Source: an uncultured Oscillospiraceae bacterium (lineage in GTDB: Bacteria; Bacillota; Clostridia; Oscillospirales; Acutalibacteraceae). From it: 62,495 nucleotides of DNA. The position numbers and the translations under genes are program-made. This document shows, piece by piece, positions 29,748 through 54,552 of the stretch. The stretch lies in contig CABRWD010000001.1 of NCBI GenBank assembly GCA_902474595.1, positions 1 to 62,495 on the forward strand. The letters run 5' to 3'. How positions within the stretch are numbered: the stretch's first letter is position 1; each line of letters opens with the position of its first letter. The notes beneath the pieces are model-generated. The model worked only from the letters and a program-made list of their open reading frames with translations, did not search any database and was not told the origin of the DNA.

Positions 29748-29793
29748 GCGTCAATAAAGAGGATCCGATTACGGGTCTTCTTTTTTTGAATAA
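29748..29793 (+). repeat. direct-repeat copy 1 (46 nt), which also forms an intrinsic terminator
   Basis: gcgtcaataaagaggatccgattacgggtcttcT7gaataa. It forms a hairpin aagaggatccg/cgggtcttctt plus a T-run. It is identical to 54506..54552 apart from one T in the run. Confidence 0.9.
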
Positions 29794-30025
29794 GAAGGAC
29801 ACAGGGGACGGAGAACGCTGATAATCACTACAAATTTCAGACCATAATATCTGCTTTTTTATCCCTTGAAAATTTATGTGCCGTAGCACATAACGGGCGT
29901 AAAACAGTCTGTGCGCAAGCATAACGGACGGCCTTTACAAGGTAAAAATCATATTTAATTATTGTAAAAAAAGCTTTAAAATTCGGCTTGTAATGTGCAA
30001 AATTCACAAAATTGATGAAGCGTAA

Positions 30026-30055
30026 TTGACATTGCACACGAAAATAAAATATAAT
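30026..30055 (+). promoter_or_regulatory. candidate sigma-A promoter of the ABC/pyrimidine cluster
   Basis: TTGACA, 18 nt spacer, TATAAT. Confidence 0.4.
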
Positions 30056-30080
30056 ATTGTCAAACAAAAAACAGTTTACG

Positions 30081-30131
30081 AAACAGACAATGGCGCCTGG
30101 TAATAAAAAAGGTGCGGTTGTCTGTTTTTTT
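30081..30131 (+). promoter_or_regulatory. terminator-like hairpin in the 5' leader (possible attenuator)
   Basis: aaacagacaa ... ttgtctgttt forms a perfect 10-bp stem, extended by cgcc/ggtg, followed by ttttt. It ends 27 nt before the ATG at 30158. Confidence 0.4.
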
Positions 30132-30157
30132 AATACTAAGGAACGGAGCGGTGACAA

Positions 30158-30922
30158 ATGAGCGCAAAGGACATAGAAATAAGTCTTAAAAACATCGGTA
30201 TGGAATATCAGAACGGCGTAACAGCTCTTACAAATTTGAGCATTGATATTAAAAAGGGCGAGTTTGTCTCGCTCCTCGGTCCGTCGGGCTGCGGTAAAAC
30301 TACCCTATTGCGAATTATTGCCGACCTGTTAAAGCCCACAAACGGCGTGGTCACCGTAGGCGGCGAAACCCCGACCGAAGCAAGACTTAAACGCAAATAC
30401 GGCATAGTCTTTCAAAGCCCCGTGCTTTACGACTGGCGCACGGTAAAGAAAAATGTGATGCTGCCTATGGAGATTTTAAAGGTTCCCAAGCCCGACCGCG
30501 AGGAGCGGGCAATGCAAATGTTAGAGCTTGTGGGACTTACGGACTTTGCTGACCGCTATCCGAAACAGCTTTCGGGCGGTATGCAGCAAAGGGTGGGCAT
30601 TGCGAGAGCGCTTGCAATTCAGCCCGAGATACTCTTAATGGACGAACCCTTTTCTGCACTTGACGAGTTCACCCGCGAAAAGCTGCACGAGGATCTCCTT
30701 AGAATTTGGCGCAAGACCGATAAAACGATAGTTTTTGTTACCCACAACATTGCGGAGTCGGTTTTCCTTTCCGACAGGGTCTGTGTGCTGTCGCCCCACC
30801 CGGGCAGACTTTCGGCGCTGATCGACATTGACCTGCCGAGACCCCGAACGGCTGAGATAAAAAATACCATAGAGTTTACGGATTATGTTGCTAAGATAAG
30901 AGGAAGCTTTGAGGGAGTGTAA
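30158..30922 (+). CDS. ABC transporter ATP-binding protein (NitT/TauT nitrate/sulfonate/bicarbonate-type family)
   Basis: Walker A GPSGCGKTT, signature LSGGMQQRV, Walker B LLMDEPFSALD. Confidence 0.9.
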   Translation: MSAKDIEISLKNIGMEYQNGVTALTNLSIDIKKGEFVSLLGPSGCGKTTLLRIIADLLKPTNGVVTVGGETPTEARLKRKYGIVFQSPVLYDWRTVKKNVMLPMEILKVPKPDREERAMQMLELVGLTDFADRYPKQLSGGMQQRVGIARALAIQPEILLMDEPFSALDEFTREKLHEDLLRIWRKTDKTIVFVTHNIAESVFLSDRVCVLSPHPGRLSALIDIDLPRPRTAEIKNTIEFTDYVAKIRGSFEGV

Positions 30923-30925
30923 GAA

Positions 30926-31738
30926 ATGAAAGCCCTTAAAAAAATAACAAATGCAAAATGGTTTATGCCCCTTTTGTGGACGCTTATTATCATATGTATA
31001 TGGGAGCTGTTCGCAACCGTGGTTGAGCATACCGAACGCTCGCCCGAAAATTTTTTACCGCACATAAGCGGAATTGTGGAATCGGTGCTGTCACGGGAAA
31101 AGATTAACGGCAGTCAGACCGCTGTCGGTATGGTGCTTCAAAACGCGGGGGCGACCCTTTCCCGCGCGGGCATAGGCTTTGCGGTAGGCGTGGCGGCGGG
31201 CTTTGTATTAGCCCTTTTAATGAGCCTTTTCGGCACGGTCGAAAAAATCGCCTTCCCGTACCTAATGCTTATTCAGATGATTCCGGTTTTGGGGCTGGCA
31301 CCAATTATTTTAGCCCTTACGGGCGACATTGCCACCAGCCGAATAGTGATAGCCGCGATACTTACCTTTTACCCCGTTGCGGCGAATACCTTAGCCGGCT
31401 TTAAGTCGGTGCAAAAGGAAAAGTACGAGCTTATGTATTCCTACGCGGCGAGCAGGAGACAGCTTTATATTAAAACTATGTTCCCCGCCTGCCTGCCCTA
31501 TTTCTTTACGGGACTGAAAATTGCCGCTCCCATGGCGGTGACCGCCTCGATACTTGTTGATACGCTTCAGGGCGGTATAGGACTCGGGTGTCTTTTATCA
31601 CAGTCGCTTAAAGGCGCTATGACGCGGTATGTTTTCTGGCAGATTATAGTACTAAGCGCAATAGTCGGCGTATTAAGCTTTGTGCTGATAGGAAAAATAG
31701 AAAAGCTGTTGTGTCCCCATAACAGTGCGGAGGTGTAA
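30926..31738 (+). CDS. ABC transporter permease
   Basis: 270 aa with 6 TM helices and the binding-protein-dependent permease EAA-like region (SYAASRRQLYIKTMFPACLP). Confidence 0.85.
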   Translation: MKALKKITNAKWFMPLLWTLIIICIWELFATVVEHTERSPENFLPHISGIVESVLSREKINGSQTAVGMVLQNAGATLSRAGIGFAVGVAAGFVLALLMSLFGTVEKIAFPYLMLIQMIPVLGLAPIILALTGDIATSRIVIAAILTFYPVAANTLAGFKSVQKEKYELMYSYAASRRQLYIKTMFPACLPYFFTGLKIAAPMAVTASILVDTLQGGIGLGCLLSQSLKGAMTRYVFWQIIVLSAIVGVLSFVLIGKIEKLLCPHNSAEV

Positions 31739-31743
31739 AAGCA

Positions 31744-32556
31744 ATGACAGGAATGAAGCTGCCCGCCACGGCAAAGCACAGCGGCGTAAAATCGGTAGTG
31801 TATCCTATCGTTTTCGGGGCGCTTGTGCTGACCCTCTGGCAAACGGGCATTTTACATAAGCTTTTGCACACCACCACAACAATTCTTCCCTTGCCGACAA
31901 AAATAATTGAGATTATAGGTGATAATGCCGCCGTTATTTGGCAAAACACCTCAGCAACCCTCGCGGTTATAATACCGGGGCTTGTTATCGGATCTGTTAT
32001 AGGCTATCTGCTCTCTGTCCTTGCCTGTAACTCGCCGCGCTTTGGCGCAACGGGACTTACTATTATAGCAGCGATAAGCGCAATACCTATTGTTGCGCTG
32101 TCGGCGGTAATGCTCCAATGGACAAGGCGGGTAAGCACCGATGTAACCGTCAGAAGCTATGTTATGAAGCTTCTTATAGTAATAATCGTCAGCATAGCCT
32201 CAATGACCCTTAACGCCTACAGAGGACTGACCGAATTACAGCCCTTTTCGCTCGACCTTATGAAATCCTATGCGGCGGGACGGCTGACGGTGCTAATTAA
32301 GCTCCGCTCTCCCAACAGTATTCCTTATATCTTCACCTCCCTTAAGGTAAGCGTTCCGGCAAGCGCTATGGCGGCGCTGGTAAGCGAATACTTTGCCGAA
32401 AAGGTCACAGGCGTGGGGCGAATGATAAGGGAAAATATACTAAAGGCACAGTATTCCACAGCGTGGGCATATATAGCGGTCGCCTGTCTTATAGGTATAA
32501 TTATGTTTGCCATACTTCTGGCAACCGAAGCTTTGGTAATGAAAAAGCGGCGCTGA
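31744..32556 (+). CDS. ABC transporter permease (second subunit)
   Basis: 270 aa with 6 TM helices and the analogous SYAAGRLTVLIKLRSPNSIP loop. Confidence 0.85.
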   Translation: MTGMKLPATAKHSGVKSVVYPIVFGALVLTLWQTGILHKLLHTTTTILPLPTKIIEIIGDNAAVIWQNTSATLAVIIPGLVIGSVIGYLLSVLACNSPRFGATGLTIIAAISAIPIVALSAVMLQWTRRVSTDVTVRSYVMKLLIVIIVSIASMTLNAYRGLTELQPFSLDLMKSYAAGRLTVLIKLRSPNSIPYIFTSLKVSVPASAMAALVSEYFAEKVTGVGRMIRENILKAQYSTAWAYIAVACLIGIIMFAILLATEALVMKKRR

Positions 32557-32603
32557 GCTTTTTTGTTAATATATTAATTCCAATTAAAACGGAGGTAATT
32601 AAA

Positions 32604-33668
32604 ATGAAAATGAAAAAATTTGCAGCGATTGCCCTTTCGGCGGCGCTTACCCTCTCCTTTGCGGGTTGCGGGAGCAAGAACACAGGCTCTGAAACCGCCT
32701 CTAAGGCTATGACCGATGAAGAAAGGATTGTTTCCGCGGCACAGGCGGGAATGGTAGGTAACTGGGGACTCGGCAACGAGTACGAGATTCAGGCTCTGCT
32801 TTCAAAATACGGTCAGTCAACCGATTATGTAAGTATGGACTTTACTATGGACCAGTTCGACACCGACGCTATCACCTTAGCCTCGGCTATGACCTACAAT
32901 GAATTGGGACTTGTGGTAAACGACTATGACGGCGGCTACGGCTACGGCGACAAGGTCGGCATTATAGATATGAACGATCAGGGCGTTGCAATGCTTGAGG
33001 ATATGATTTTCTGCACAAAGAGCTTTGCACAGAATAACCCGAACACCGTCCGCGCCTTTGTTTCGGCTTCGCTCAAGGGCTGGAAATACGCCTGCGAGAA
33101 CCCCGAGGAGGCGCCAGAGATAGTTTACAAGGCAGGTTCTTCGGTTTCCTCCGAACACCAGGCATATATGGCTAAAGAGGTTAAGAAGTTAGTTGAGACC
33201 GACACCAAGGGCAACACCGTAACCAATTACGGCAATATGGACGAGGAGGCTTTACAGCAAACCCTCGACCTTGCAAAGAAGTACATTAAGCTTGACGACT
33301 CCGCGGCGGCGGAAAAGCTAAGCAAGCTTACCCTTGACGATATCCGCGATTCCTCCTACTTAACAGGCGAGTTCGGCGAACCCGAGAAGAAGGATGTTTC
33401 CATTCAGCTTAAATGGCTGCCACAGGCTCAGTTTATGGGCTACTATGTAGCTAAGGACAAGGGCTATTACGACGAGGTCGGTCTTAATGTCACCATCACT
33501 CCCGGAGGCGGCGACATAGGCGAGACCACCGCCGTAAGCAACGGAACGGTCGATTTCGGCGTAACCTGGGTTTCAAACCTTATCACCGCTAACGCAGGCG
33601 GTATGGACTTAGTAGATGTAGCGCAAATCTATCAGCGCTCGGGACTTGTACTTGTCTACAAAAAGTAA
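32604..33668 (+). CDS. lipoprotein substrate-binding protein, NMT1/THI5 (SsuA/ThiY)-like, with apparently permuted domain order
   Basis: I prefer the ATG at 32604 after a ggagg RBS; the track ORF starts at 32463. A signal peptide plus lipobox LSFAGC is present. NMT1-type segments are present but in swapped order (see findings). Confidence 0.8.
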   Translation: MKMKKFAAIALSAALTLSFAGCGSKNTGSETASKAMTDEERIVSAAQAGMVGNWGLGNEYEIQALLSKYGQSTDYVSMDFTMDQFDTDAITLASAMTYNELGLVVNDYDGGYGYGDKVGIIDMNDQGVAMLEDMIFCTKSFAQNNPNTVRAFVSASLKGWKYACENPEEAPEIVYKAGSSVSSEHQAYMAKEVKKLVETDTKGNTVTNYGNMDEEALQQTLDLAKKYIKLDDSAAAEKLSKLTLDDIRDSSYLTGEFGEPEKKDVSIQLKWLPQAQFMGYYVAKDKGYYDEVGLNVTITPGGGDIGETTAVSNGTVDFGVTWVSNLITANAGGMDLVDVAQIYQRSGLVLVYKK

Positions 33669-33747
33669 ATTTCTAATTTATTCTCTGCCTTTCTCAAAAG
33701 AGGAGGGCAGAGAAAGATATGTTTTAAGATAAGAAAGGGTGTTTTTT

Positions 33748-35103
33748 ATGGATCTGCTTATAAAGAACGGAACGGTTGTAACCGATTCCGAAATGTTTGC
33801 CGCCGATATTGCGGTAACCGACGGAAAAATTACGGCTGTCGCCGCCGATTTAAAGCCGACAGCAGATACTGCCGTTGTGGACGCGGCGGGCAAGCTTGTA
33901 CTGCCGGGCGCCATTGACGCCCACACCCACCTTGCGATGCCCTTCGGCGGCACTATTTCCTCGGACGATTATTACGCGGGAACCCGTGCTGCCGCCTGCG
34001 GTGGCACTACCACGGTGTTTGATTTTGTTTTGCAGGATTTCGGCGAGACTATGGTGGACGCGATAAAGCGGCGTGACGAGCTTTGCAAACCCGTTGCCGC
34101 GGTAGATTATTCCTACCATGTTGCGATAAAGGATGTAAGCGGCGAGCTTATTGATTCTATAGGCGACGCGGTGGAATACGGCGTTCCCTCCTTTAAGGTG
34201 TTTATGGTTTACGATTTTGGGGTTAAGGACGGCGTTTTCTATCAGGTACTCGAAAAGGCAAAAGAGGTCGGCGCGCTTATTGAGGTTCACGCCGAGAATA
34301 ACGAAATGGTAAATATGTTTACCAAGAAATTTTTGTCGGAGGGAAAGACAAGCGCGTGGTATCACTACCTCTCCCGCCCCGAATTTGTGGAGGCGGAGGC
34401 GGATATAAGGGCGATACAGTGGGCAAAATCATTGAACGCTCCCCTTTACATAGTACACCTTGCAAATAAAGAAGGTGTAGAGGCGGTGACCAAGGCGCGG
34501 GACGAGGGCTACGAGATTTACGCCGAGACCTGCCCGCAGTACCTTGAATTTACTTCTGATGTATACAAGCGCGAGGACGGCAGAAACTTCGTCTGCTCGC
34601 CGCCGATGAAGGGCGAGGAAAGCAGAAAATCTCTGTGGGAGGCTATTAAGCGCGGCGATATTGCCACAATAGCCACCGACCATTGCCCCTTCCAATCCTT
34701 TGAAAAGGATTGGGGCAAGGACGATTTCTCAAAAATTCCCAACGGCTGTGCGGGAATTGAAAATATGTACCCCTATATGCTCTCAGCCGCAAACAAGGGG
34801 GTTATAAGCTACCAAAAGGCGGTGGAGCTATGCGCCGCTAACCCCGCTAAGATATTCGGCTGTAAAAATAAGGGCTCCCTTACCGTCGGCAAGGACGCGG
34901 ACATTGTAATCTACGACCCGAACACAGAATTTACAATTACCAACGATAAAATGCACTCCGACTGCGACCACACGATCTGGGAGGGGGTAACCCTTAAGGG
35001 CTACCCCGAAAAGACCTATTCCAGAGGAAGGCTCGTCTACGATAAGGGCGAGTTTAAGGGCGAAAAGGGCTGGGGTAAATTTGTAAAATGCTCCCTTAAA
35101 TAA
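33748..35103 (+). CDS. hydA: dihydropyrimidinase / D-hydantoinase
   Basis: IDAHTHL, PSFKVFM (carboxylated-Lys position), EVHAEN, IVHLA and ATDHCP metal-site motifs. Length is about 451 aa. Confidence 0.9.
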   Translation: MDLLIKNGTVVTDSEMFAADIAVTDGKITAVAADLKPTADTAVVDAAGKLVLPGAIDAHTHLAMPFGGTISSDDYYAGTRAAACGGTTTVFDFVLQDFGETMVDAIKRRDELCKPVAAVDYSYHVAIKDVSGELIDSIGDAVEYGVPSFKVFMVYDFGVKDGVFYQVLEKAKEVGALIEVHAENNEMVNMFTKKFLSEGKTSAWYHYLSRPEFVEAEADIRAIQWAKSLNAPLYIVHLANKEGVEAVTKARDEGYEIYAETCPQYLEFTSDVYKREDGRNFVCSPPMKGEESRKSLWEAIKRGDIATIATDHCPFQSFEKDWGKDDFSKIPNGCAGIENMYPYMLSAANKGVISYQKAVELCAANPAKIFGCKNKGSLTVGKDADIVIYDPNTEFTITNDKMHSDCDHTIWEGVTLKGYPEKTYSRGRLVYDKGEFKGEKGWGKFVKCSLK

Positions 35104-35119
35104 ATTGTCGCTATGCGGC

Positions 35120-35393
35120 AGGCTGACGAGGGTTGAACCTATTACGGTTTGGGTTTCCGCCTTTTCCCGCCGGCTTTGCACCTATTTTTGAAAAAGCTAA
35201 GTATTCCTGCAAATTCGTAGACAATGCCTAATGAAAAAAGGCGGAGACACAAACTCTTTGACCTGCCATTTAGAAGAATTTTGATTCGGGCGAAGTCGAA
35301 GAACGCAGCAATACTGGCGTATTGCAAGTGATGAGACAAGTACGAACAAAATTATTCAAATGTCAGGCGTGATGGGTTCGACTCTCGTCAGCC
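35120..35393. repeat. 274-nt element bounded by terminal inverted repeats (MITE-like or structured RNA)
   Basis: aggctgacgagggttgaacc at 35120 and gggttcgactctcgtcagcct ending at 35393. The outer 11 bp are perfect and about 17 of 21 match overall. It fills most of the hydA/preA-like spacer. Confidence 0.6.
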
Positions 35394-35409
35394 TAAAGAG
35401 GTGAAGAAA

Positions 35410-36867
35410 ATGCTTAATATTAAGGAAGAGGCTTCAAGGTGTCTGCTCTGCGCGGACCCCGCCTGCACAAGAGCCTGTAAAAGCGGTCTTGACCCGGCAA
35501 GGGCGGTGCGCTCGGTTTATTTCGATAATCCCGAAGGCGCGGCGATTTTTACAGACCAAGGCATTTGCGCTGAGTGCTTCGGCGAGTGCGAACAGGCTTG
35601 CGTACATTACGATACGCCTATCAGAATAAGGGAGCTTGTAAATCTGCTCCCGCAAAAAGAAAAACCGACAAAAACCGATTTATCTACCCAATTTTTAGGT
35701 GTTCATTTTGAAAACCCCTTTATTCTCTCGTCTTCAATAGTGGCGGGCAGCTATGATATGTGCGCCGCCGCCTTTAAGGCGGGCTGGGCGGGAGCGGCTT
35801 TTAAAACCATAGGCTTTTTAAAGCCTAAAGAGGTTTCGCCCCGCTTTGACGCGATAAGCAAGGAAAGTGCGCCCTTTATAGGCTTTAGAAACTTAGAGCA
35901 GATTTCCGACCATGATTTAAGCCGCAATCTTGACGATTTAAGAAGACTTAAAGAGGACTTTCCGACTAAGGTTATCGTTGCCTCAATAATGGGGCAGAAC
36001 GAGGAGGAGTGGACAAAGCTTGCCGAGCTTGTAACCGAGGCTAAAGCCGATATTATCGAATGTAATTTCAGCTGTCCCCAGATGTGCGGCAAGGGCTTAG
36101 GCTCGGATGTGGGGGAAGACCCCGAATTAGTCGCCCGCTACACCGCGGCGGTAAGAAAGGGAACAAAGCTCCCAATACTTGCAAAGATGACCCCCAATCT
36201 CGGCAAGATGGAGCCGCCCGCAATAGCCGCGATAAGGGCGGGAGCAGACGGCATTGCCGCCATCAACACGGTAAAGAGCATAACGGGACTCTCATATGAC
36301 TGCAAAAGCCCACGGCTTGATATTGACGGAAAAAGCGCGGCTTCGGGCTATTCGGGCAAGGCGGTAAAGCCCATTGCCCTTAGGTTTATAAACGATATGA
36401 AGCATTGCCCCGAGCTTAAGGATATTCCGATAAGCGGAATGGGCGGCATTGAAAGCTGGCACGACGCGGCGGAGTTTATAGCACTCGGTTGCGGAAATGT
36501 TCAGGTTACCACGGCGGTAATGCAGTACGGCTACCGAATAATCGACGACCTTACAGACGGGCTTTCCCGATTTTTATCGAAGAACGATTATGAAAGACTT
36601 TCGGACTTTGTAGGCACGGCAAAAGAGGAATTTGTCTCGGCTGACGAGCTTAACCGCAGCAGTACCGTTTACCCCGCCTTTGATAAAAAGAATTGTGTGG
36701 GGTGCGGAAGATGTATGCTTTCCTACCGTGACGCGGGGCATCAGGCAATTTCTATTACAGAGGATAAAAAGCCGAGGCTTGACCCTAAAAAGTGCGTCGG
36801 ATGTCTTTTATGCTCCCTTGTCTGTCCGACAGGGGCGATAGGTCGGTCGAAACGGATTTATAAATAA
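35410..36867 (+). CDS. dihydropyrimidine dehydrogenase PreA-like (DHOD-fold FMN domain plus C-terminal ferredoxin motifs) with an extra N-terminal 2x4-Cys domain
   Basis: The N-terminus has CLLCADPACTRAC and CAECFGECEQAC. The core has FENPFILSSS...ECNFSCPQM...GGI. The C-terminus has CVGCGRC... and CVGCLLCSLVCP. I prefer the ATG at 35410 after aaagagg. Confidence 0.8.
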   Translation: MLNIKEEASRCLLCADPACTRACKSGLDPARAVRSVYFDNPEGAAIFTDQGICAECFGECEQACVHYDTPIRIRELVNLLPQKEKPTKTDLSTQFLGVHFENPFILSSSIVAGSYDMCAAAFKAGWAGAAFKTIGFLKPKEVSPRFDAISKESAPFIGFRNLEQISDHDLSRNLDDLRRLKEDFPTKVIVASIMGQNEEEWTKLAELVTEAKADIIECNFSCPQMCGKGLGSDVGEDPELVARYTAAVRKGTKLPILAKMTPNLGKMEPPAIAAIRAGADGIAAINTVKSITGLSYDCKSPRLDIDGKSAASGYSGKAVKPIALRFINDMKHCPELKDIPISGMGGIESWHDAAEFIALGCGNVQVTTAVMQYGYRIIDDLTDGLSRFLSKNDYERLSDFVGTAKEEFVSADELNRSSTVYPAFDKKNCVGCGRCMLSYRDAGHQAISITEDKKPRLDPKKCVGCLLCSLVCPTGAIGRSKRIYK

Positions 36868-36889
36868 AAACGCAAGGAGGCGGAGGAAA

Positions 36890-38056
36890 ATGGCTATTAC
36901 CATGGCAAAGCTTTGCGAGGACGCAAGGGCGAAATACGATATGGAGCTTATAGCAGGCAAGGGCGGCGCGGAAAACACCGTAAGGTGGGTGCATATGGTT
37001 GAGGACAGAGAAGTTCCCGACTTTCTGCACGGCGGCGAGCTTATCTTTACAACGGGTATCGGTCACATCGAAAGCGATGACCGTATGCTTGAGTTTACCC
37101 GTAATCTCCACGCCCACGGCGCGGCGGGGGTTGTTTTCAACATAGGACCCTACATAAAAAGGATTCCTCCCGAGGTTATAAGCTACGCCGACCAAAACGA
37201 TTTTCCCGTCTTTACCCTACCTTGGAAGGTGCACATAATCGATATTACCTATGATTTCTGCGGCAGGATAATCGAAAACGAAAAGGCGGAAATGAGCCTT
37301 ATGCAGGCGTTCAAAAACCTGATATTCAGCCCCGAAAAGGAGGACGAATATCTCCCCGCCATACAGAAAAACGGCTTTGCCGCCGCCTCGCATTACAGGG
37401 TGTTTGCATTAACCTTCTTCTCGTCAAACGGCAAAAAGGCAACCGCTCCCGTAGTCGCAAAAAACAAAACCCTTTTGTGGCGTATATTCGCCCGTTCCGA
37501 CTCCCCCGTCGCTATGTTTGAGTACGCCTCAAGCCTTATTGTTATAAAGCAGAACAGTCCCCCTAAATGCGTTGAGCGTATTACCGCCGCTTTAGAACGG
37601 GCTTTCCAAAAAAGCAGTATCACCTATAAAATCGGAATTTCCGACGAGGGGGCGGGCTATCTTTCGGTACCTTATCTTTACCGTCAGGCAAACGCGGCGC
37701 TTGTAACGGCGAAATATCAGGACTTGGTCACAAAAAGCTACTGCGATATAGGGCTTAACCGCCTTATACTCGCCGTGGAGGACAAGGATTTATTAAGCCG
37801 TTACGCAAACGAAGTACTTAAGCCCGTTGCGGATTATGACGAGAAAAACGGCACAGACTGCCTTGAGCTTTTAAAGCTTTATGTTGAAAGCGATTCAAGC
37901 GTGATAGCCGTGGCGGAAATGAGCGGCGTTCACCGCAACACGGTAAATAACCGAATAAAGCTTGTCCGCGAGCTTTTAGGCTATGAGCTTACCGAGAAAA
38001 GAAAGGCGGAGCTGATATTAGCCTTTCAGATTAAGGATATTTTGAATTTTATTTAA
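36890..38056 (+). CDS. PucR-family transcriptional regulator
   Basis: The N-terminal purine-catabolism-regulator-like domain reads ELIAGKGGAENTVRWVHMVED..GGELIFTTG. The C-terminal HTH reads SVIAVAEMSGVHRNTVNNRIKLVRELLG. Confidence 0.85.
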   Translation: MAITMAKLCEDARAKYDMELIAGKGGAENTVRWVHMVEDREVPDFLHGGELIFTTGIGHIESDDRMLEFTRNLHAHGAAGVVFNIGPYIKRIPPEVISYADQNDFPVFTLPWKVHIIDITYDFCGRIIENEKAEMSLMQAFKNLIFSPEKEDEYLPAIQKNGFAAASHYRVFALTFFSSNGKKATAPVVAKNKTLLWRIFARSDSPVAMFEYASSLIVIKQNSPPKCVERITAALERAFQKSSITYKIGISDEGAGYLSVPYLYRQANAALVTAKYQDLVTKSYCDIGLNRLILAVEDKDLLSRYANEVLKPVADYDEKNGTDCLELLKLYVESDSSVIAVAEMSGVHRNTVNNRIKLVRELLGYELTEKRKAELILAFQIKDILNFI

Positions 38057-38070
38057 CGGAGGCATTTAAA

Positions 38071-39402: not shown

Positions 39403-39407
39403 GGAGT

Positions 39408-39803: not shown

Positions 39804-39819
39804 AAAGGAAGAATGTCTT

Positions 39820-41082: not shown

Positions 41083-41093
41083 GCCTGCAAATT

Positions 41094-45788: not shown

Positions 45789-45803
45789 AAGGGGAAAATC
45801 CAA

Positions 45804-46748
45804 ATGACTACAGTTATTGCGAGCGCGGGTCTTGCCGTAAATGAGCGCATAGAAATACGCCGCAACAGAATACAGAATCTCGACCACAAAAGTCCTTCAA
45901 ACAAACGGGTGTGCATAGTTTCGGGAACCCACGGCGACGAGCTGGAGGGTCAGTATGTCTGCGCTAAGGCGGCGCAGATACTAAGAGACAATATATCCAG
46001 CTTAAACGGAACCGTGGATATATATCCCGCGCTTAATCCATTGGGAATCGACAGCATAAACAGGGGCATCCCGCTTTTCGACCTTGATATGAACAGGATT
46101 TTTCCTGGTACTGCCGACGGAACGATGGCGGAATGTATTGCCGCCGATATAATAGACGATATAAGCGGGGCGGATATATGTATAGACATACATTCGAGTA
46201 ATATTTATCTAAAAGAAATTCCTCAAATCAGAATAAACGAAATAAGCGCGGAGGAGCTTGTACCCTACGCAAAGCTTTTAAACTGCGACTTTATATGGGT
46301 TCATTCCTCCGCAACGGTGCTTGAAAGCACCTTAGCCTACAGCCTTAATACGACAGGCACAAAGACTCTCGTGGTTGAAATGGGGGTCGGAATGAGGATT
46401 ACAAGCGAATACTGCAAACAGCTTACGGCGGGTATTTTTAATCTTTTAAAGGAGCTCGGAATGTGGCAGGGCGAAACCGAGCCGGTCAAAAGCCCCATCA
46501 TTTCAAGCGACCATGAGGTTGCCTTTGTAAACAGCGGTGCAGACGGCATTTTTGTCCCCTCGGTCGGGCATTGGGTGGATATTAAAAAGGGCGAGCATAT
46601 CGGCGATGTAATAGACCCTGTGACCGGCAAAACAGAGGAATATGTAACCGCTCCCTGCGGCGGTAAAATATTTACATTAAGGGAATTTCCCATAGTCTAC
46701 GGCGGCTCGCTTATCGCGCGTATTTTGGGAGGAAAAACAGATGCGTAA
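45804..46748 (+). CDS. succinylglutamate desuccinylase/aspartoacylase (AstE-AspA, M14-like) family protein, metal site intact
   Basis: VCIVSGTHGDELEG (HxxE) and CIDIHSS (third ligand). Confidence 0.8.
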   Translation: MTTVIASAGLAVNERIEIRRNRIQNLDHKSPSNKRVCIVSGTHGDELEGQYVCAKAAQILRDNISSLNGTVDIYPALNPLGIDSINRGIPLFDLDMNRIFPGTADGTMAECIAADIIDDISGADICIDIHSSNIYLKEIPQIRINEISAEELVPYAKLLNCDFIWVHSSATVLESTLAYSLNTTGTKTLVVEMGVGMRITSEYCKQLTAGIFNLLKELGMWQGETEPVKSPIISSDHEVAFVNSGADGIFVPSVGHWVDIKKGEHIGDVIDPVTGKTEEYVTAPCGGKIFTLREFPIVYGGSLIARILGGKTDA

Positions 46749-47667
46749 ACAGATTCTTTATTCCATACAGTCGCCCTACCGCGCTCCTATGGATATAATC
46801 GGCTTTAAATTCGGCGGCGGCGAAAAGGCGATGTGCGTTGTCGGAGCGATGAGGGGCAACGAGGTACAGCAGATGTATGTCTGCTCACAGCTTGTAAAAC
46901 GGCTTAAGGCTCTCGAAAAAAGCGGCGCTATATTAGACGGAAAGGAAATAATGATAATCCCCTGCGTCAACTATTATTCAATGAATATCGGCAAGCGGTT
47001 CTGGACAATGGATAACACCGATATAAACCGTATGTTCCCGGGCTACAACCTCGGCGAAACCACCCAAAGGATAGCCGACGGTCTTTTTGAGGAAATCAAG
47101 GGCTATACCTACGGCGTACAAATGGCAAGCTTTTATCAGCAGGGGGATTTTCTTTCCCATGTCAAAATAATGGAAACGGGCTTTACGGAGCATGGGGTTC
47201 TTTCTGATTTCGGTCTGCCCTACGCTTTTGTACGCACTCCCCGCCCGTATGATACCACAACCCTTAACTACAACTGGCAGGTTTGGGAAACAAAAGCCTT
47301 TTCGCTTTACACCAACGCGACCGATACGATAGACGAGGACTCCGCGAAAACAGCGGTTGACGCGATACTCAGATTTATGAAAAAGCGCGGCATAATAAAG
47401 GCGGAGGTTTTCAGCGGCTATAATACCGAAATAATAAGCGAGGACAGGCTTCTTCAGGTTCATTCTACCGCGGCGGGCATTTATAAAAGCTATGTTAAGA
47501 CGGGCGACGAGGTAAGAAAGGGCGATCTGCTGTGTGAAATAATAGACCCGCTTGAGGGAGTTGTTATCTCAAAGGTTTTGGCACCCGCCGACGGAATTGT
47601 ATTTTTCAGATATAACCGTCCCCTTGAATTTGAAAAAACCGTACTTTACAAAATAATCAGAATATGA
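46741..47667 (+). CDS. AstE-AspA family paralogue with a degenerate metal site
   Basis: MCVVGAMRGNEVQQ has Arg where the paralogue has His, and no DxH-type third ligand is visible (VQMASF). It overlaps the preceding gene by 8 nt. Confidence 0.75.
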   Translation: MRKQILYSIQSPYRAPMDIIGFKFGGGEKAMCVVGAMRGNEVQQMYVCSQLVKRLKALEKSGAILDGKEIMIIPCVNYYSMNIGKRFWTMDNTDINRMFPGYNLGETTQRIADGLFEEIKGYTYGVQMASFYQQGDFLSHVKIMETGFTEHGVLSDFGLPYAFVRTPRPYDTTTLNYNWQVWETKAFSLYTNATDTIDEDSAKTAVDAILRFMKKRGIIKAEVFSGYNTEIISEDRLLQVHSTAAGIYKSYVKTGDEVRKGDLLCEIIDPLEGVVISKVLAPADGIVFFRYNRPLEFEKTVLYKIIRI

Positions 47668-47707: not shown

Positions 47708-47714
47708 TAATATA

Positions 47715-48005
47715 AGTTTAATAGTTTAAACCGTTGAAGCGGAGATAAAGTCGGTTATGCTTCCACAGAGAGTCCGAGGTGCTGTGATTCGGGCGAAAAA
47801 CAGACCGTCAAATGGACCGCTGAGGGTGCGGTCAAATGCGTTTTCGCAGAGTATTCCGCAACGTTAAGGCATACGTTAGTTGTCGGGGATATGCTTGTAT
47901 CCTGCTAAGGCGCGTAGCTTTTTGCTATGAAAACAAGGTGGCACCGCGGATAATCGTTTTATTCGTCCTTGACAGAGGGTAGCTTTCTGTCGGGGGCGTT
48001 TTTTG
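47715..48005 (+). promoter_or_regulatory. T-box riboswitch leader, tryptophan specifier (UGG)
   Basis: AGAGA box cagagagtccgaggtgctgtga, specifier context aaaUGGa at 47813..47815, T-box sequence aacaaggtggcaccgcgg at 47932..47949, and terminator cgtccttgacaga...tctgtcgggggcg plus T-run at 47964..48005. Confidence 0.85.
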
Positions 48006-48055
48006 TTTTGCTCCCCGATGGAAACGGAAACCAAATTTTCAGGAGGTTAAGCAAA

Positions 48056-49522
48056 ATGAAATTTATGCCTGATTTAGAAGAGGTTAAAAGAATCGCGGCG
48101 GAGGGAGAATATAAGGTTCTGCCGGTCAGCTGTGAAATTCTGTCTGACATCTGCACGCCGATCGAGGCGGTGGGAATACTCAAAAACGTATCCGACCATT
48201 GCTATATGCTGGAATCGGTCGCCGAGAGCGAGCGTTGGGGACGGTACACCTTTTTAGGCTTTGAGCCGAAGCTTGAAATTACCTGTCTTGACGGCGAGGT
48301 AAAGGCGGGCGGCGAAAGCTTTTATACCGATAATCCCTCCGATTTTCTGCGGGAAATTTTAAAGGAATGGAAAAGCCCGAGATTTTCCTATCTTCCGTCA
48401 TTTACAGGGGGGCTTGTGGGCTACTTTTCCTACGATTACCTCTGCTACAGCGAGCCTACCGCAAAGGTAAAAACGCAGGACAGCGAAAATTTCAAGGATA
48501 TGGATTTAATGCTATTCGACAAGGTTATCGCCTTTGATAATGTTAAGCAGAAAATCGTGCTTATAGTAAATATGCCCCTTGGCAATCCCGAAAAAGAGTA
48601 CGAAAAGGCGGTAGAGGAGCTTAAAAGACTTGCCTATTTGCTTAGGAACGGGGACAGAAAAAAGGAGGCGGGCGGACGGCTTTTAGGCGAGGTCACACCG
48701 CTTTTTAACAGGGAGCAGTACTGCCGAATGGTCGAAAAGGCAAAGCACCATATAAAGGAGGGTGACATTTTCCAAATAGTCCTTTCCAACCGTTTAAGCG
48801 CGCCCTTTGAGGGAAGTCTTTTAAACACCTACCGAATTCTCCGTACCATAAACCCCTCGCCCTATATGTTCTATTTTTCGGGCACGGATGTCGAGGTTGC
48901 GGGCGCGTCCCCCGAAACCCTTGTAAAGCTTGAGGACGGGGTTTTACACACCTTTCCCCTTGCGGGAACAAGACCGCGGGGAGAAACCGAGGAAGAGGAC
49001 AAAGCGCTCGAAAAGGGACTGCTTGCCGACAAAAAGGAGCTTGCGGAGCATAATATGCTTGTTGACCTTGGAAGAAACGACCTTGGGAAAATAAGCAAAT
49101 TCGGGACGGTAAAGGTCGAAAAGCTCCACAGCATAGAGCGGTATTCCCATGTTATGCACATAGGCTCGACCGTAAGGGGCGAAATCCGCGACGGCTGTGA
49201 CGGGCTTGACGCGGTGGAGGCGGTACTGCCCGCGGGTACCCTTTCGGGCGCGCCGAAATTAAGGGCGTGCCAGCTAATAGGCGAGCTTGAAAACAACAAG
49301 CGCGGAATTTACGGCGGCGCTATCGGATATATTGATTTTACGGGGAACACCGACACCTGTATTGCAATACGCATTGCCTACAAGAAAAACGGCAAGGTAT
49401 TTGTTAGGAGCGGTGCGGGTATTGTTGCCGACTCCGACCCTAATAAGGAATTTGAGGAATGTATAAACAAGGCGAAGGCGGTAGTAAACGCCTTAAGACT
49501 TGCGGGGGAGGAAGATTTATGA
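48056..49522 (+). CDS. trpE: anthranilate synthase component I
   Basis: I prefer the start MKFMPDLEEV after an aggagg RBS; the track start at 47969 lies inside the T-box terminator. The chorismate-binding domain carries GAIGYI and similar motifs. Confidence 0.95.
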   Translation: MKFMPDLEEVKRIAAEGEYKVLPVSCEILSDICTPIEAVGILKNVSDHCYMLESVAESERWGRYTFLGFEPKLEITCLDGEVKAGGESFYTDNPSDFLREILKEWKSPRFSYLPSFTGGLVGYFSYDYLCYSEPTAKVKTQDSENFKDMDLMLFDKVIAFDNVKQKIVLIVNMPLGNPEKEYEKAVEELKRLAYLLRNGDRKKEAGGRLLGEVTPLFNREQYCRMVEKAKHHIKEGDIFQIVLSNRLSAPFEGSLLNTYRILRTINPSPYMFYFSGTDVEVAGASPETLVKLEDGVLHTFPLAGTRPRGETEEEDKALEKGLLADKKELAEHNMLVDLGRNDLGKISKFGTVKVEKLHSIERYSHVMHIGSTVRGEIRDGCDGLDAVEAVLPAGTLSGAPKLRACQLIGELENNKRGIYGGAIGYIDFTGNTDTCIAIRIAYKKNGKVFVRSGAGIVADSDPNKEFEECINKAKAVVNALRLAGEEDL

Positions 49523-50094
49523 TACTGCTTATTGATAATTACGACAGCTTTTCATATAACCTTTATCAGCTGATAGGCGAAATCGAGCCTAATATTAAGG
49601 TTATCCGCAATGATGAAATGACGGTAGAGGAAATAAGTAAGCTCTCCCCCGACCGCATAATTTTGTCCCCCGGTCCCGGCAGACCCGAGGACGCGGGGGT
49701 AATAATAGACTGCGTAAAGGAATTGGGCGGAAGGATACCGATTTTGGGAGTGTGTCTCGGTCATCAGGCTATCTGCGCGGCGTACGGAGCGGAAATCACC
49801 TACGCAAAGGAGCTTATGCACGGTAAGCAGTCTGAAGCCACCCTCGATTTAACCTGTCCCTTGTTTAAGGGCTGTAACGAAAAAACCGAGGTTGCGCGCT
49901 ATCACTCCCTTGCGGCAAATAAGGACACCCTGCCCGACTGTTTAAGAGTGACCGCCGAAACGGCGGACGGCGAGGTAATGGCGGTTATGCATACAGAATA
50001 TCCCGTCTTCGGCGTTCAGTTCCACCCGGAATCGATAATGACGCCGAGCGGCAAAATAATGCTTGAAAATTATATTAAGGAGTGTTCTTTATGA
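49519..50094 (+). CDS. trpG: anthranilate synthase component II (glutamine amidotransferase)
   Basis: [17 protein letters not shown] and GVCLGHQ catalytic Cys. An ATGA overlap links it to trpE. Confidence 0.9.
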
Positions 50095-51119
50095 TTAAGG
50101 AAGCTATTGTAAAGATTGTAAATAAGGGTGATTTAAGCTATGACGAGGCGTACGCCGTAATGAACGAAATTATGAGCGGCGAGACCTCCCCCACCCAGAA
50201 CGCCGCGTTTTTGGCGGCGCTTTCAACAAAAAGCGCGAAAGCCGAAACCATCGATGAGATAGCGGGCTGTGCCGCCGCAATGCGGGAGCACGCGTTAAAG
50301 CTTGATACCGATATGGAGCTTTTCGAGATAGTCGGCACGGGCGGAGACAACGCCCACAGCTTTAATATTTCCACCACCTCCGCCCTTGTCGCGGCGGCAG
50401 GCGGAATGAAGGTCGCAAAGCACGGCAACCGCGCCGCCTCCTCAAAATGCGGCACTGCCGACTGCCTTGAAGCTCTGGGGGTAAACATTGAGCAAAGCCC
50501 CGAAAAGTGCAAGGAGCTTTTGGAAAAGGTAGGAATGTGCTTTTTCTTCGCGCAGAAATACCACACCTCTATGAAATATGTGGGAGCTATAAGGAAAGAG
50601 CTCGGCTTCCGCACCGTTTTCAATATCTTAGGACCGCTTACCAACCCCGGAAGTCCTAAATATCAGCTTTTAGGCGTGTACGATGAGTATTTGGTCGAGC
50701 CGCTCACCAAGGTGCTTATGAGCCTCGGCGTTAAGCGGGGTATGACGGTTTACGGCAAGGATAAGCTGGACGAAATATCTTTAAGCGCACCCACAACCGT
50801 ATGCGAGTTTAAGGACGGCTGGTACAAGACCTATACAATAGCTCCTGAGGATTTCGGTTTAAAGCGTTGTGAAAAAAGCGAGCTTGTGGGCGGCAGTCCG
50901 GAGGAGAACGCCGAGATTACACGGGCGATACTAAGCGGCGAAAAGGGAGCTAAGCGTGACGCGGTGCTTATGAATGCCGGTGCGGCGCTTTACATAGGCG
51001 GCAAGGCGGAGACTATGGCGGAGGGCGTTGCCCTCGCCGGTCAGCTTATTGATTCGGGCGCGGCGCTAAAGGTGCTTGAGGGGCTTATTGAAATCAGTAA
51101 TTCGGGTGAAAAGCAATGA
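50091..51119 (+). CDS. trpD: anthranilate phosphoribosyltransferase
   Basis: [17 protein letters not shown] and [15 protein letters not shown] motifs. An ATGA overlap links it to trpG. Confidence 0.95.
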
Positions 51120-51898
51120 CGGTGCTCGACAGGCTCGCCGACTACGCAAGACAGCGCACAGAGGCGGAAAAAAGGGAATTACCCTTTAATGAATTAAGGC
51201 GTCAGGCGGAACAGCTCCCCAAGAAGGGCTTTGAGTTTGAAAAAGCGCTTAAAAAGGAAGAAATATCTTTCATTTGCGAGTGCAAAAAAGCCTCCCCCTC
51301 AAAGGGGATAATCGCCCCCGATTTTCCTTACTTAGAGATTGCGAGGGACTACGAAAGGGCGGGCGCGGACTGCATTTCGGTGCTTACCGAGCCTAAGTGG
51401 TTTTTAGGGAGCGATGAATATTTAAGCGAAATTTCCGCGAATGTCTCTATCCCCTGTCTTCGCAAGGACTTTACGGTGGACGAATATATGATTTATAAGG
51501 CGCGGCTTTTAGGAGCGTCGGCGGTACTGCTTATCTGCTCAATACTTGACGAAGCGAGAATAAAGGAGTATATTAATATTTGCGATTCGCTTGGGCTTTC
51601 CGCCCTTGTGGAGGCGCACGACGAAAACGAGGTTGTTTCAGCCCAGCGCGCGGGGGCGAGAATAATAGGAGTAAACAACCGTAATTTAAAGGATTTTTCG
51701 GTCGATACCGAAAACAGCGCGCGGCTAAAAAGTCTTGTATCAAATGATGTGCTTTTTGTTTCGGAAAGCGGGGTCAAAACCCGAGCTGATGTAGAAAAGC
51801 TGATAGAGATAGGCGCGGACGCGGTGCTTGTAGGCGAAACCCTTATGCGGGCAAGCGACAAAACCGCCGCGCTTAAAGAATTAAAGGGCTTACTATGA
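51116..51898 (+). CDS. trpC: indole-3-glycerol-phosphate synthase
   Basis: [17 protein letters not shown] and GVNNRNL motifs. Confidence 0.95.
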
Positions 51899-52503
51899 CA
51901 AAGATAAAATTTTGCGGACTTAGAAGGCAAGAGGATATTGATTTTGCTAACCTTATCCTGCCCGAGTACATAGGCTTTGTTTTCGCAAAGAAAAGCAAAC
52001 GGTATGTATCTCCCGAAAAAGCCGCGCTATTAAAGAAAAGGCTTGACGGCAGAATTAATGCTGTCGGGGTCTTTGTAAACGAGGAGCCCCTACAGGTCGC
52101 AGAGCTTTTAAATGGCGGGGTTATCGATATAGCCCAGCTCCACGGCGGCGAAAATGAGGAATATATAAGCGAACTGCGAAAGCTTACCGATAAGCCGATT
52201 ATTAAGGCTTTTAATGTAACAGACGAAAGCGATATTTCTTTAGCGTTAAATAGCTCGGCGGATTTTGTCCTGCTCGATTCTCCCTTGGCGGGAAGCGGAA
52301 CGCGGTTTGACTGGGAGCTGTTAAAAAATTTCGGCAGACCATATTTTTTAGCGGGCGGGCTTAATCCCGACAATGTTTTCGGCGCGGTGCTAAGTCTTCA
52401 CCCTTACGCGGCAGATGTAAGCTCGGGTATAGAAACAGACGGGGTTAAGGATTTTGATAAAATGAAGCGCTTTGCGGCGGTAAGAGAACTGAAAGGAACA
52501 TAA
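51895..52503 (+). CDS. trpF: phosphoribosylanthranilate isomerase
   Basis: MTKIKFCGL...IGFVF...QLHG pattern. An ATGA overlap links it to trpC. Confidence 0.9.
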   Translation: MTKIKFCGLRRQEDIDFANLILPEYIGFVFAKKSKRYVSPEKAALLKKRLDGRINAVGVFVNEEPLQVAELLNGGVIDIAQLHGGENEEYISELRKLTDKPIIKAFNVTDESDISLALNSSADFVLLDSPLAGSGTRFDWELLKNFGRPYFLAGGLNPDNVFGAVLSLHPYAADVSSGIETDGVKDFDKMKRFAAVRELKGT

Positions 52504-52506
52504 AAA

Positions 52507-53697
52507 ATGGCAGATAAAAAGGGACGCTTCGGAATACACGGCGGTCAGTATATTCCCGAAACGCTGATGAACGCGGTTATAGAGCTTGAAGAAGCCTACA
52601 ATCACTTTAAGGACGACCCGCAGTTTAATAAGGAATTAACCGACCTTTTTAACGATTATGCGGGAAGACCCTCAAGGCTTTATTTTGCCCAAAAAATGAC
52701 CGAGGATTTAGGCGGGGCTAAAATTTACCTTAAACGCGAGGATTTAAACCACACGGGCGCGCACAAGATAAACAATGTTTTGGGTCAGGCTCTGCTTGCT
52801 AAAAAAATGGGCAAGACCCGCTTAATCGCCGAAACGGGAGCGGGTCAGCACGGTGTTGCGACCGCCACCGCCGCCGCCCTTATGGGAATGGAGTGCGTGG
52901 TCTTTATGGGGGAGGAGGACACCGTCCGTCAAGCACTTAATGTTTACCGTATGCGGCTTTTAGGCGCGGAGGTTATCCCCGTAAAGAGCGGCACAGCAAC
53001 CCTTAAGGACGCGGTTTCCGAGGCGATGCGGGAATGGACGCGGCGTATTGCAGACACCCACTACTGCTTAGGCTCGGTTATGGGTCCCCACCCGTTTCCG
53101 ACGATAGTGCGCGATTTTCAGGCGGTAATTTCAAAGGAGATAAAAGAACAGCTCCTTGAAAAGGAAGGCAAGCTCCCCGACGCGGTTTTAGCCTGTGTCG
53201 GCGGCGGCTCTAACGCTATCGGAAGCTTTTATCACTTTATAGGCGATCCCTCGGTGCGGCTTATCGGCTGTGAGGCGGCGGGCAGAGGAATCGACACCTT
53301 CGAGACCGCCGCAACCGTAAACACGGGCAGAGTAGGCATTTTCCACGGTATGAAGTCCTATTTCTGTCAGGACGAGTACGGTCAGATAGCACCCGTTTAC
53401 TCAATTTCGGCGGGGCTTGATTATCCGGGCGTAGGCCCCGAGCACGCCTATCTTCACGATACAGGCAGGGCGGAGTATGTTCCCGTCACCGATGACGAGG
53501 CGGTAAACGCCTTTGAATACCTTTCAAAAACCGAGGGAATTATCCCCGCAATAGAATCCTCCCACGCGGTCGCCCATGCTATAAAGCTTGCGCCGACTAT
53601 GGATAAGGACAAGATTATTGTAATTACTATTTCGGGCAGAGGGGACAAGGACTGCGCCGCGATAGCGAGATACAGGGGTGAAAATATCTATGAGTAA
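52507..53697 (+). CDS. trpB: tryptophan synthase beta chain
   Basis: [16 protein letters not shown] (PLP lysine) and GGGSNAIG. Confidence 0.95.
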
Positions 53698-54463
53698 GAT
53701 TAAAAACGCGTTTGAAAACGGCAAGGCGTTTATTCCGTTTGTGACCTGCGGCGACCCGAGCCTTGATACTACCGCCGAGCTCGTAAAGGCAATGGAGACG
53801 GCGGGGGCAGACCTTGTTGAGCTTGGTATTCCCTTTTCCGACCCCACCGCCGAGGGACCGGTTATTCAGGCGGCGAATTTAAGGGCGCTGTCTGGCGGGG
53901 TTACGACCGATAAGATTTTTGATATGGTAAGAAATTTAAGAAAAACGGTTAAAATTCCGCTTGTGTTTATGACCTATGCGAATGTCGTCTTTTCCTACGG
54001 CGCGGACAAATTTATTTCAACCTGTGCCGAAATAGGTGTTGACGGACTTATTCTTCCCGATATTCCGTTCGAGGAAAAGGAGGAGTTTTTACCCGTTTGT
54101 AAAAAATACGGGGTCGATTTAATTTCTATGATAGCCCCCACCTCAAACGATAGAATAGGTATGATAGCAGAGAAAGCCGAGGGCTTTATCTACTGCGTTT
54201 CATCGCTTGGCGTTACAGGCGCAAGGGACTCTATTACCGCCGATATAGGCGAAATGGTGCGCCTTGTAAAGGAAAAAAACGATATCCCCTGCGCGGTGGG
54301 CTTCGGTATTTCAACCCCCGAGCAGGCAAGCAGTATTGCGCAAAAGGCGGACGGGGTTATAGTCGGCTCGGCTATAGTTAAAATGTGCGCCGAGTACGGC
54401 AAGGCTTGCGTTGAGCCTGTCGCGGAATATGTTAAAAAAATGAAGACCGCCGTGAACAGTTAA
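53690..54463 (+). CDS. trpA: tryptophan synthase alpha chain
   Basis: [10 protein letters not shown] and [18 protein letters not shown] prefer the ATG at 53690, which overlaps the trpB stop; the track start is 53678. Confidence 0.95.
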
Positions 54464-54505
54464 TCCTGCGGATAAAATGTATCTTAAATGCAAAATATAA
54501 GGTTG

Positions 54506-54552
54506 GCGTCAATAAAGAGGATCCGATTACGGGTCTTCTTTTTTTTGAATAA
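54506..54552 (+). repeat. direct-repeat copy 2 (47 nt), the intrinsic terminator after trpA
   Basis: gcgtcaataaagaggatccgattacgggtcttcT8gaataa. It is identical to 29748..29793 apart from the T-run length. Confidence 0.9.

Follow-up and report, generated by a model that had tools for sequence, protein, structure and literature searches.

How did a 46-nucleotide (nt) sequence come to stand at both ends of a 24.7-kb block of metabolic genes, directly beside a large serine recombinase gene? The locus lies in a 62,495-nt stretch (the window) of contig CABRWD010000001.1 (C1), assembly GCA_902474595.1, from an uncultured Oscillospiraceae bacterium. This assembly, labelled G000, comprises 1.71 Mb in 189 contigs and was compared within a genus set of 212 genomes that includes it; G-labels (G113, G216, G111, G123 etc.) denote genomes of the genus and L-labels individual contigs. 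The best explanation overall, to which we assign a probability of about 0.6, is that the repeat is the terminator of a spore protein gene (ssp), duplicated when the block was inserted with the assistance of homology, and that the adjacent recombinase was uninvolved. The main features, with gene content between the repeat copies assigned by Pfam, are the following:

29748-29793, forward strand: repeat copy 1, GCGTCAATAAAGAGGATCCGATTACGGGTCTTC followed by T7 and GAATAA; 46 nt
54506-54552, forward strand: repeat copy 2, GCGTCAATAAAGAGGATCCGATTACGGGTCTTC followed by T8 and GAATAA; 47 nt
29794-54505, forward strand: the block, read as inserted, a mosaic of modules M1, M2 and M3
28011-29741, forward strand: large serine recombinase open reading frame (ORF) of the element E1, with Resolvase, Recombinase and Zn-ribbon domains and the catalytic motif YARVSS
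54595-54801, forward strand: gene of a small DUF378 membrane protein, which across the genus is the conserved gene downstream of ssp and the ssp terminator

The two copies are in direct orientation and 46/46 identical, and the sequence reads exactly as the initial annotation gave it. A 6-nt spacer separates the recombinase stop codon (29739-29741) from copy 1, and 42 nt separate the trpA stop codon (54461-54463) from copy 2. In each copy a 12-bp stem with a 4-nt loop precedes a T-run, and the terminator scan detects both alike; the fold of copy 1 has -21.5 kcal/mol (z = -4.5). With a G+C-rich stem-loop and a T-run, placed just past a stop codon on the coding strand, the repeat is predicted to be an intrinsic (Rho-independent) terminator, in agreement with the initial annotation. 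A 33-mer scan with up to three mismatches gave two matches in the window, against none expected (100 shuffles), and the count over the entire 1.71-Mb assembly is exactly two, which answers the call for a genome-wide count of the 46-mer. The same scan of the genome-contig collection gave no match, and that of metagenome contigs a sole match, 100% identical to window positions 51744-54882 and possibly from the same sample.

What the repeat is can be read from the recombinase ORF in front of it, a point absent from the initial annotation, as is the identity of the repeat itself. The recombinase C-terminus reads ...GRTGHTF|KKMIESYENSMK*, its last 12 codons being supplied by the 3' end of ssp. Many species without a recombinase there share the final ~41 nt of the ORF, at 88-95% conservation; in those species these nucleotides form the 3' end of a gene of 61-66 amino acids (aa), ...NRFKMEAANEVGVNLKQGYNGDLTSKQAGSIGGQMVKKMIESYENSMK*, which encodes an α/β-type small acid-soluble spore protein (SASP; PF00269). 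Since the recombinase ORF ends in the ssp tail, the element that carries it sits inside ssp. A pattern scan for the 46-mer terminator over all 212 genomes found orthologues in four sister species, one copy each, and none in the remaining 207, G000 being the only genome with two copies; the proposal of a multi-copy terminator repeat does not survive this count. Both G113 and G216 have the order intact ssp, 'gacttc', orthologous hairpin, T-run with GAATAA/T, and DUF378. The order in G111 is recombinase, ssp tail, same terminator and DUF378, without the block, and G123 also has an orthologous terminator behind a recombinase-ssp tail. The order ssp, terminator, DUF378 is common in many other species, with a terminator sequence that differs by species. 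Because sister species have the orthologous terminator behind ssp, the 46-nt repeat is the native Rho-independent terminator of the α/β-type SASP gene, usually single in the genus, and the ancestral order is ssp, terminator, DUF378. Copy 1 is still behind the ssp tail and now closes the recombinase/ssp-tail ORF; copy 2 sits at the end of the trp operon, directly upstream of the DUF378 gene, and is predicted to serve as the terminator of that operon.

An empty site is present in the same species. Contigs encoding a protein identical to the window DUF378 led to L050 (ERZ27242832:k141_214650, 48.8 kb), a metagenome contig on which a different recombinase gene (75% nt identity to that of the window) ends in the same ssp tail; behind it come GACTTT, a single 46-mer (T9), TAAAGCTTAATAGG... 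and DUF378. Its right flank is ~98% identical to the window across 8 kb, so L050 belongs to the same species. The left flank of its single copy is that of copy 1, and the right flank (TAAAGCTTAATAGG...) is that of copy 2. The observed and predicted junctions are:

Empty-site junction: ...AAATAAGACTTT + 46-mer + TAAAGCTTAATAGG...
Predicted circle junction of the block: ...ATATAAGGTTG + 46-mer + GAAGGACACAGG...

Because a conspecific contig has this precise one-copy empty site, the 24.7-kb block is best regarded as a strain-variable insertion bounded exactly by the duplicated terminator. In the synteny comparison that had been suggested, the block is absent in L050 and in sister species, and its modules are found elsewhere in other species. 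The filled arrangement with both junctions is present in independent assemblies from other samples and is therefore not an assembly artefact; one single MEGAHIT k141 contig (ERZ27280253:k141_178761) covers the recombinase, copy 1, the block, copy 2 and DUF378, and many human-gut assemblies have trpA, the repeat and DUF378 arranged as in the window. A second block-bearing lineage (the ~97% strains) has the left junction GAATAA|GAAGGACACAGG in identical form, and its copy 1 (GAGGACCCGATTGCGGG) and copy 2 (GAGGATCCGATTACGGG) differ by two substitutions. The same left junction together with diverged copies points to one insertion that predates the split of the lineages, the copies having evolved independently since then without being homogenised. 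The two block-bearing lineages have no identical block protein in common, which puts the block of a third lineage out of reach of exact look-ups.

The adjacent recombinase was the natural suspect, and the initial annotation had offered the repeat as a possible substrate of it. Its sites could be mapped:

29682-29741, forward strand: attR of E1, composed of the P arm GGTCGTACGGGACACACTTTTAA (29682-29704), the core TAA (29702-29704) and the ssp-derived B' arm with the stop codon (29705-29741)
1-27803, reverse strand: AT-rich, capsule-type polysaccharide-biosynthesis cluster, compositionally foreign (GC 0.37, tetranucleotide distance 0.342)

Copy 1 lies 44 nt downstream of the crossover TAA. In G003, G008, G010 and G123 the far end of the element carries the remaining half of ssp. 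In these relatives attL is ...GGTCAGATGGTTAA|TAACATCTGTCCTGTACGAC..., its left side being also given as ...GATGGTTAA, and attR is GTACGGGACACACTTTTAA|GAAAATGAT...; attP, as reconstructed, forms an imperfect palindrome centred on TTAA/TAA, the usual anatomy for a site of a large serine recombinase. The enzyme has also moved to a second target. On L106 (ERZ27242832:k141_137604, from the same sample as L050) the recombinase is 99% identical to that of the window (558/566 aa) up to ...GRTGHTF and is then fused in frame to a GH36 α-galactosidase, so that the same P arm as in the window is joined to GH36. The junctions are clean (attL ...GAGTATCTAA|GAAAATCTGTCCTGTACGGC, attR ...CACTTTTAA|CCTTACATATAAGG) and share only TAA, and attP of E1 is GGTCGTACGGGACACACTTTTAA|GAAAATCTGTCCTGTACGGC. 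The GH36 gene is uninterrupted on a G000 contig (G000:C87:2126-2725), with flanks 100% identical. As the same element entered two targets and duplicated only TAA, its enzyme did not make the 46-nt repeat. In the L106-type conspecific strain, ssp is occupied by another element. An exact-protein look-up of the window recombinase gave no record.

E1 extends to the left of its attR. Past the left end of the window, other assemblies have Phd/ParE, SWIM, NT/HEPN and Fic genes, and the complete 15.4-kb element of G123 has, next to attL, a pair 86% identical to this Phd/ParE pair; the polysaccharide cluster is therefore cargo of E1. This cargo amounts to about three polysaccharide genes in L106 vs the >27-kb cluster in the window, and seems to have grown. 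In the window-type strain an IS256-family insertion, ~100 nt short of attL, marks the point where homology to the intact element stops and unrelated genes follow. No P' arm, ssp 5' half or other SASP gene was found in the G000 assembly. With attL and the ssp 5' half lost, E1 is stranded in this lineage, unable to excise. It is a mobile element separate from the block and uninvolved in the repeat. In a near-identical strain (L058) the recombinase gene is split (108 + 428 aa). A homologous DegT/sugar-transferase cluster in G013 (G013:C17:2220-3710) abuts a second DUF378 paralogue (90% aa identity) with neither recombinase nor ssp between them, and G013 also has ssp, terminator and DUF378 on another contig.

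A second insert is found at the same spot in G123 (contig G123:C53, L078). There the recombinase with the ssp tail and the orthologous terminator are followed by a CsoR/HMA/P-type ATPase cluster, then by the last 135 nt of trpB and trpA (92% identical to the window; flanking core genes 79%), a spacer homologous to the one behind trpA in the window, the final 12 nt of ssp followed by a different terminator, another ssp tail (26/33 match), a GNAT gene, TTTTTTTGAATAAT... and DUF378. The insert is bracketed by an imperfect duplication of ~30 nt (T7-GAATAA + 17 nt; 23/30), which overlaps that of G000 only in the T-run and GAATAA, and it is an insertion independent of the one in G000. Such varying duplication boundaries fit homology-anchored plus illegitimate joining; a fixed-core recombinase predicts constant ones. 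The two extra ssp 3'-end remnants of the insert (L078 8172-8183, 12 nt, and 8281-8313, 26/33 nt) look like footprints of repeated rearrangement at the locus. An ssp-tail remnant was also considered as the P' arm of the recombinase and rejected, the real P' arm (TAACATCTGTCCTGTACGAC...) being unrelated. A 15-nt deletion could derive the right junction of G000 from a G123-like junction; this is speculative and is not relied on.

The content of the block agrees with the initial annotation (ABC importer, pyrimidine cluster, ATP-grasp module and trp operon), and Pfam assigns it as follows:

29794-29943, forward strand: left inner edge of the block, with the junction GAATAA|GAAGGACACAGG common to both block-bearing lineages
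30026-30055, forward strand: perfect match to a sigma-70-type promoter (TTGACA-18-TATAAT), a consensus match only, preceding the ABC operon
29944-42477: M1, with an ABC importer (NMT1-type binding protein), dihydropyrimidinase-like amidohydrolase and PreA-like dehydrogenase, and further a PucR regulator, class-III aminotransferase, M20 hydrolase and iron-containing alcohol dehydrogenase (Fe-ADH)
43016-47667: M2, with a circularly permuted ATP-grasp protein, an alpha-E protein, a transglutaminase-like protein and two AstE/AspA genes
47969-54463: M3, trpEGDCFBA
54464-54505, forward strand: right inner edge of the block, a spacer which separates trpA from copy 2 and is homologous to the spacer behind the trpA remnant of G123

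The promoter match downstream of copy 1 predicts that the block has its own start signal. Rfam over the window gave only one tRNA, with no riboswitch or T-box above threshold at the block leaders. The modules differ in their distribution. M1 is found at 77-88% in G033, G085, G069 and G095, in other chromosomal contexts; those in G033, G085 and G069 are unrelated or conserved ones, with no flanking direct repeats, and M1 has no integrase as neighbour in G085 or G069. The trp operon is found at 71-92% in G147, G103, G066, G132 and G123, with trpA of G147 and G103 elsewhere and followed by their own terminators. M2 had no match in the other genus genomes searched, the left inner edge is found in this species only, and the block boundary regions were not found in the five species with the most similar modules. 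With a GC of 0.486 (genome 0.459) and a tetranucleotide distance of 0.108 (background median 0.096), the block lies within the genome background. All block ORFs of at least 100 aa are metabolic by assignment, except one of 134 aa (39399-39803) without a Pfam match. No tyrosine recombinase (PF00589) or remnant of one is present on contig C1, and the block has no plasmid, phage or viral similarity apart from a 58-nt match, resembling a miniature inverted-repeat transposable element (MITE), in a Vescimonas replicon. On these grounds the block is read as a host-like mosaic of modules with differing distributions in the genus. Compared with an integrase-borne island, it has the target-identical direct repeats and the empty site; an integrase and atypical composition are lacking. 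In G033 (L082, i.e. G033:C3; 6765-7262) a truncated tyrosine integrase of 165 aa lies directly behind the Fe-ADH gene of M1.

Dispersed MITE-like repeats occupy the spacers between the modules. An element of ~280 nt (35120-35398), between the amidohydrolase and PreA-like genes, is one dispersed repeat, with copies on at least eight other G000 contigs and in dozens of genus genomes at 70-90% identity. A second, nested-palindrome family, similar to MITEs or repetitive extragenic palindromes (REPs), is found at 41094-41276, 42748-42971 and 58637-58962 and in dozens of copies across G000 contigs; it marks module borders, and it is a 58-nt piece of it that matches the Vescimonas fastidiosa replicon.

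Insertion of the block with duplication of the terminator would require one homologous exchange within the terminator or just to the left of it, together with a single illegitimate joint, at 54505/54506. A circularised 'terminator + block' fragment could have integrated via a single Campbell-type crossover (route a), or a linear fragment anchored in the conserved ssp tail could have been joined by its far end just upstream of the resident terminator, as in homology-facilitated illegitimate recombination (route b); both routes would yield the same product. The two 46-nt copies would now be able to support a precise RecA-type deletion of the block. Copy 1 would insulate the block from transcription of the recombinase, with the ABC operon on its own promoter and the trp operon ended by copy 2. 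Among the three explanations in the initial annotation, a scar of Campbell-type integration is the best supported: the repeat is a resident single-copy sequence, a precise one-copy allele is present in the population and sister species are free of the block. That much stands, while the mechanism itself we infer from its end products. We hold the identity of the parts to be highly probable; for a homology-assisted mechanism, as against a trans-acting site-specific recombinase, the odds are about even.

Besides this dependence on end products, several points weigh against such an insertion. It needs a donor with the block directly behind the terminator, or an illegitimate circularisation, and no donor arrangement was found when the M1 contexts, trpA terminators, boundary regions and left edge were checked in the genus. 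For efficient recombination by RecA in Firmicutes, a 46-nt repeat is short. The duplications of G000 and G123 both include TTTTTTTGAATAA, and a trans-acting recombinase with its core there is possible. The window type, the ~97% type and L050 are mutually equidistant at about 98% (right-flank divergence), so the local tree cannot polarise insertion vs deletion and is silent on whether L050 is ancestrally empty or a secondary deletion. This equidistance, and the trpA remnant which G123 keeps at the same locus, would also suit a block that is ancestral at the site, with a repeat that arose by local duplication or convergence and empty forms that are deletions. We consider that history improbable: ssp, terminator and DUF378 are found without the block in G111, G113, G216 and many more distant species, the block modules are located elsewhere in other species, and convergence cannot give 46/46 identity. 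L050 moreover carries a different element (E2) in ssp and so did not simply arise by deletion from the haplotype with E1 and the block, an ancestrally empty L050 being the simpler reading. A dispersed terminator, REP or MITE family, for its part, would be found at many unrelated loci, and true families of this kind are present in other spacers of the window, whereas the terminator has two copies in G000 and at most one in each of the 211 other genomes (one in each of the four sister species), and the 46-mer was not found in plasmid, phage and viral collections. Nor does an assembly join across a shared 46-mer fit, given that different samples, assembled independently with k > 46, show both junctions again; we give next to no credence to either possibility.

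Two readings would have a site-specific recombinase make the repeat. That the copies are attL and attR of the adjacent enzyme, with the block as its cargo, is suggested by a gene that ends 6 nt before copy 1 and by the recent movement of the same recombinase. It is nevertheless very improbable. The attL and attR sites of large serine recombinases are attP/attB hybrids, with a shared core of 2-3 nt (up to ~16-18 nt in known cases), whereas the copies are direct and identical over 46/46 nt, not hybrid half-sites, and lie apart from the crossover mapped within attR at 29682-29741; the doubt already voiced in the initial annotation about such long identity was well placed, the real sites of the enzyme sharing TAA alone, as at GH36. 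The element itself extends to the left, with the P' arm and other ssp half at its far end in relatives, and empty-site strains and species keep a single terminator right behind attR of other recombinase elements. The other reading, an integrase-less island mobilised in trans by a tyrosine-type recombinase, with the 46-nt repeat as the att identity segment and crossover in the T-run/GAATAA, deserves more attention, and we rate it as unlikely. Direct repeats of a target-gene 3' region on either side of an island, plus a precise empty site, make up the textbook case; the independent duplications of G000 and G123 overlap on TTTTTTTGAATAA; 11 tyrosine recombinases are encoded on other G000 contigs, and the truncated integrase lies behind M1 in G033. 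Set against this are the lack of an integrase or remnant in or beside the block, the M1 copies of G033, G085 and G069 without flanking direct repeats (and those of G085 and G069 without an integrase), the mosaic of modules with differing distributions and host-like composition, and a 46-mer found nowhere else in the genome or in viral contigs. The extents of duplication also differ between G000 and G123, and the ssp-tail remnants of G123 are bounded otherwise. In a related and rather doubtful view, the hairpin, T-run and GAATAA behind ssp would be a recurrent docking site where integrase-less metabolic islands come and go, which may be mobilised in trans or travel with neighbouring ssp-targeting recombinase elements. 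If so, the duplications of G000 and G123 and the stacked ssp-tail remnants of G123 would record repeated site-directed captures and not accidents.

Compared with known systems, the duplicated terminator and its block are of an ordinary kind: an accessory island flanked by repeats sits at a hotspot, and the neighbouring recombinase has no part in it. The islands ICESt1 and ICESt3 and their integrase-less derivatives, the cis-mobilisable elements (CIMEs), at fda of Streptococcus thermophilus are reportedly flanked by direct repeats of the 3' end of the target gene. The block resembles them in being bracketed by repeats of the 3' region of a conserved gene, in the one-copy empty site elsewhere and in the lack of an integrase within it. 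It differs in that the repeat is a terminator hairpin past the stop codon and not coding sequence, that a host-like mosaic of metabolic operons is present with no integrase, relaxase or conjugation remnant, and that the second insertion, in another species (G123), duplicated a segment that overlaps the one in G000 without being the same. Campbell-type insertion and homology-facilitated illegitimate recombination are said to have been described in the naturally transformable Acinetobacter and Streptococcus pneumoniae. Shared with those cases are a short homologous anchor plus an illegitimate joint, a variable duplicated segment and a product that can be lost again between the copies; unlike them, the present one concerns an uncultured gut bacterium known here from sequence alone, and the donor arrangement was not found.

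The family of ssp-targeting elements is the more unusual biology at the locus. In Bacillus and Clostridium, ssp is expressed in the forespore. Sporulation genes are known to harbour intervening elements with large serine recombinases, namely skin in sigK, SPbeta in spsM and gin in gerE (PMC4191935, PMC5595907, PMC5025042), and the published ones split mother-cell genes (PMC4191935, PMC5595907). E1 is like skin, SPbeta and gin in having a large serine recombinase gene at one end and in splitting a small sporulation gene at a short core, and like gin in its non-phage cargo. Unlike theirs, its target ssp is a forespore gene, and it also uses a non-sporulation target, GH36, which resembles the behaviour of an ordinary mobile element. 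In G000, moreover, the other half of ssp and attL are gone and no reconstitution is possible; both gene halves are present in G123, where the complete 15.4-kb element is found on one contig. Our literature search found no paper on intervening elements in ssp.

Across the genus, the recombinase-ssp junction is found at the identical codon in 38 of the 212 genomes and in 19 of the 108 high-quality ones (e.g. G008:C19:4836, G010:C98:48955, G123:C53:17922). An intact ssp site is present in 71 of the 110 genomes which are at least 90% complete, nearly always as a single copy, and most genomes of the genus have only one α/β-SASP gene. About one species in five thus has its usually single ssp split, which raises the question of how spore DNA is protected, or whether sporulation is retained at all; in the gut bacterium studied here, E1 has disabled the only α/β-SASP gene. 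Three assemblies (G009, G068 and G157) contain both an intact and a split ssp, which may reflect population heterogeneity or excision. A split at a second position of ssp (~codon 27-33, junction ...HSGTSR|EVGVNLKQ) is found in G017 (G017:C57:37895-38017 and G017:C59:5218-5313) and at a contig end in G018 (G018:C69), which suggests another element family with a different site in ssp.

Two things that looked linked, the accessory island and the serine-recombinase element, are now separated. Strains of this human-gut species vary in tryptophan prototrophy and pyrimidine use, traits that a single step between the 46-nt copies could remove, and in several species cargo gathers at the hotspot behind ssp. 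As both empty sites of E1, at ssp and at GH36, are known, they provide ready attP/attB sequences for a new large serine integrase. In the ~97% strains (L047, L049 and L053) the equivalent of trpD (window 50082-51119) is called as two ORFs of 133 and 194 aa, a hint of trp operon decay in part of the strains. Strain variation is also seen to the right of the block, where a 53-nt direct repeat with a 99-nt period (57048-57199) lies beside a tRNA gene (57205-57275, reverse strand): its copy number varies between strains, L048 having one unit fewer and L047 and L050 differing too.

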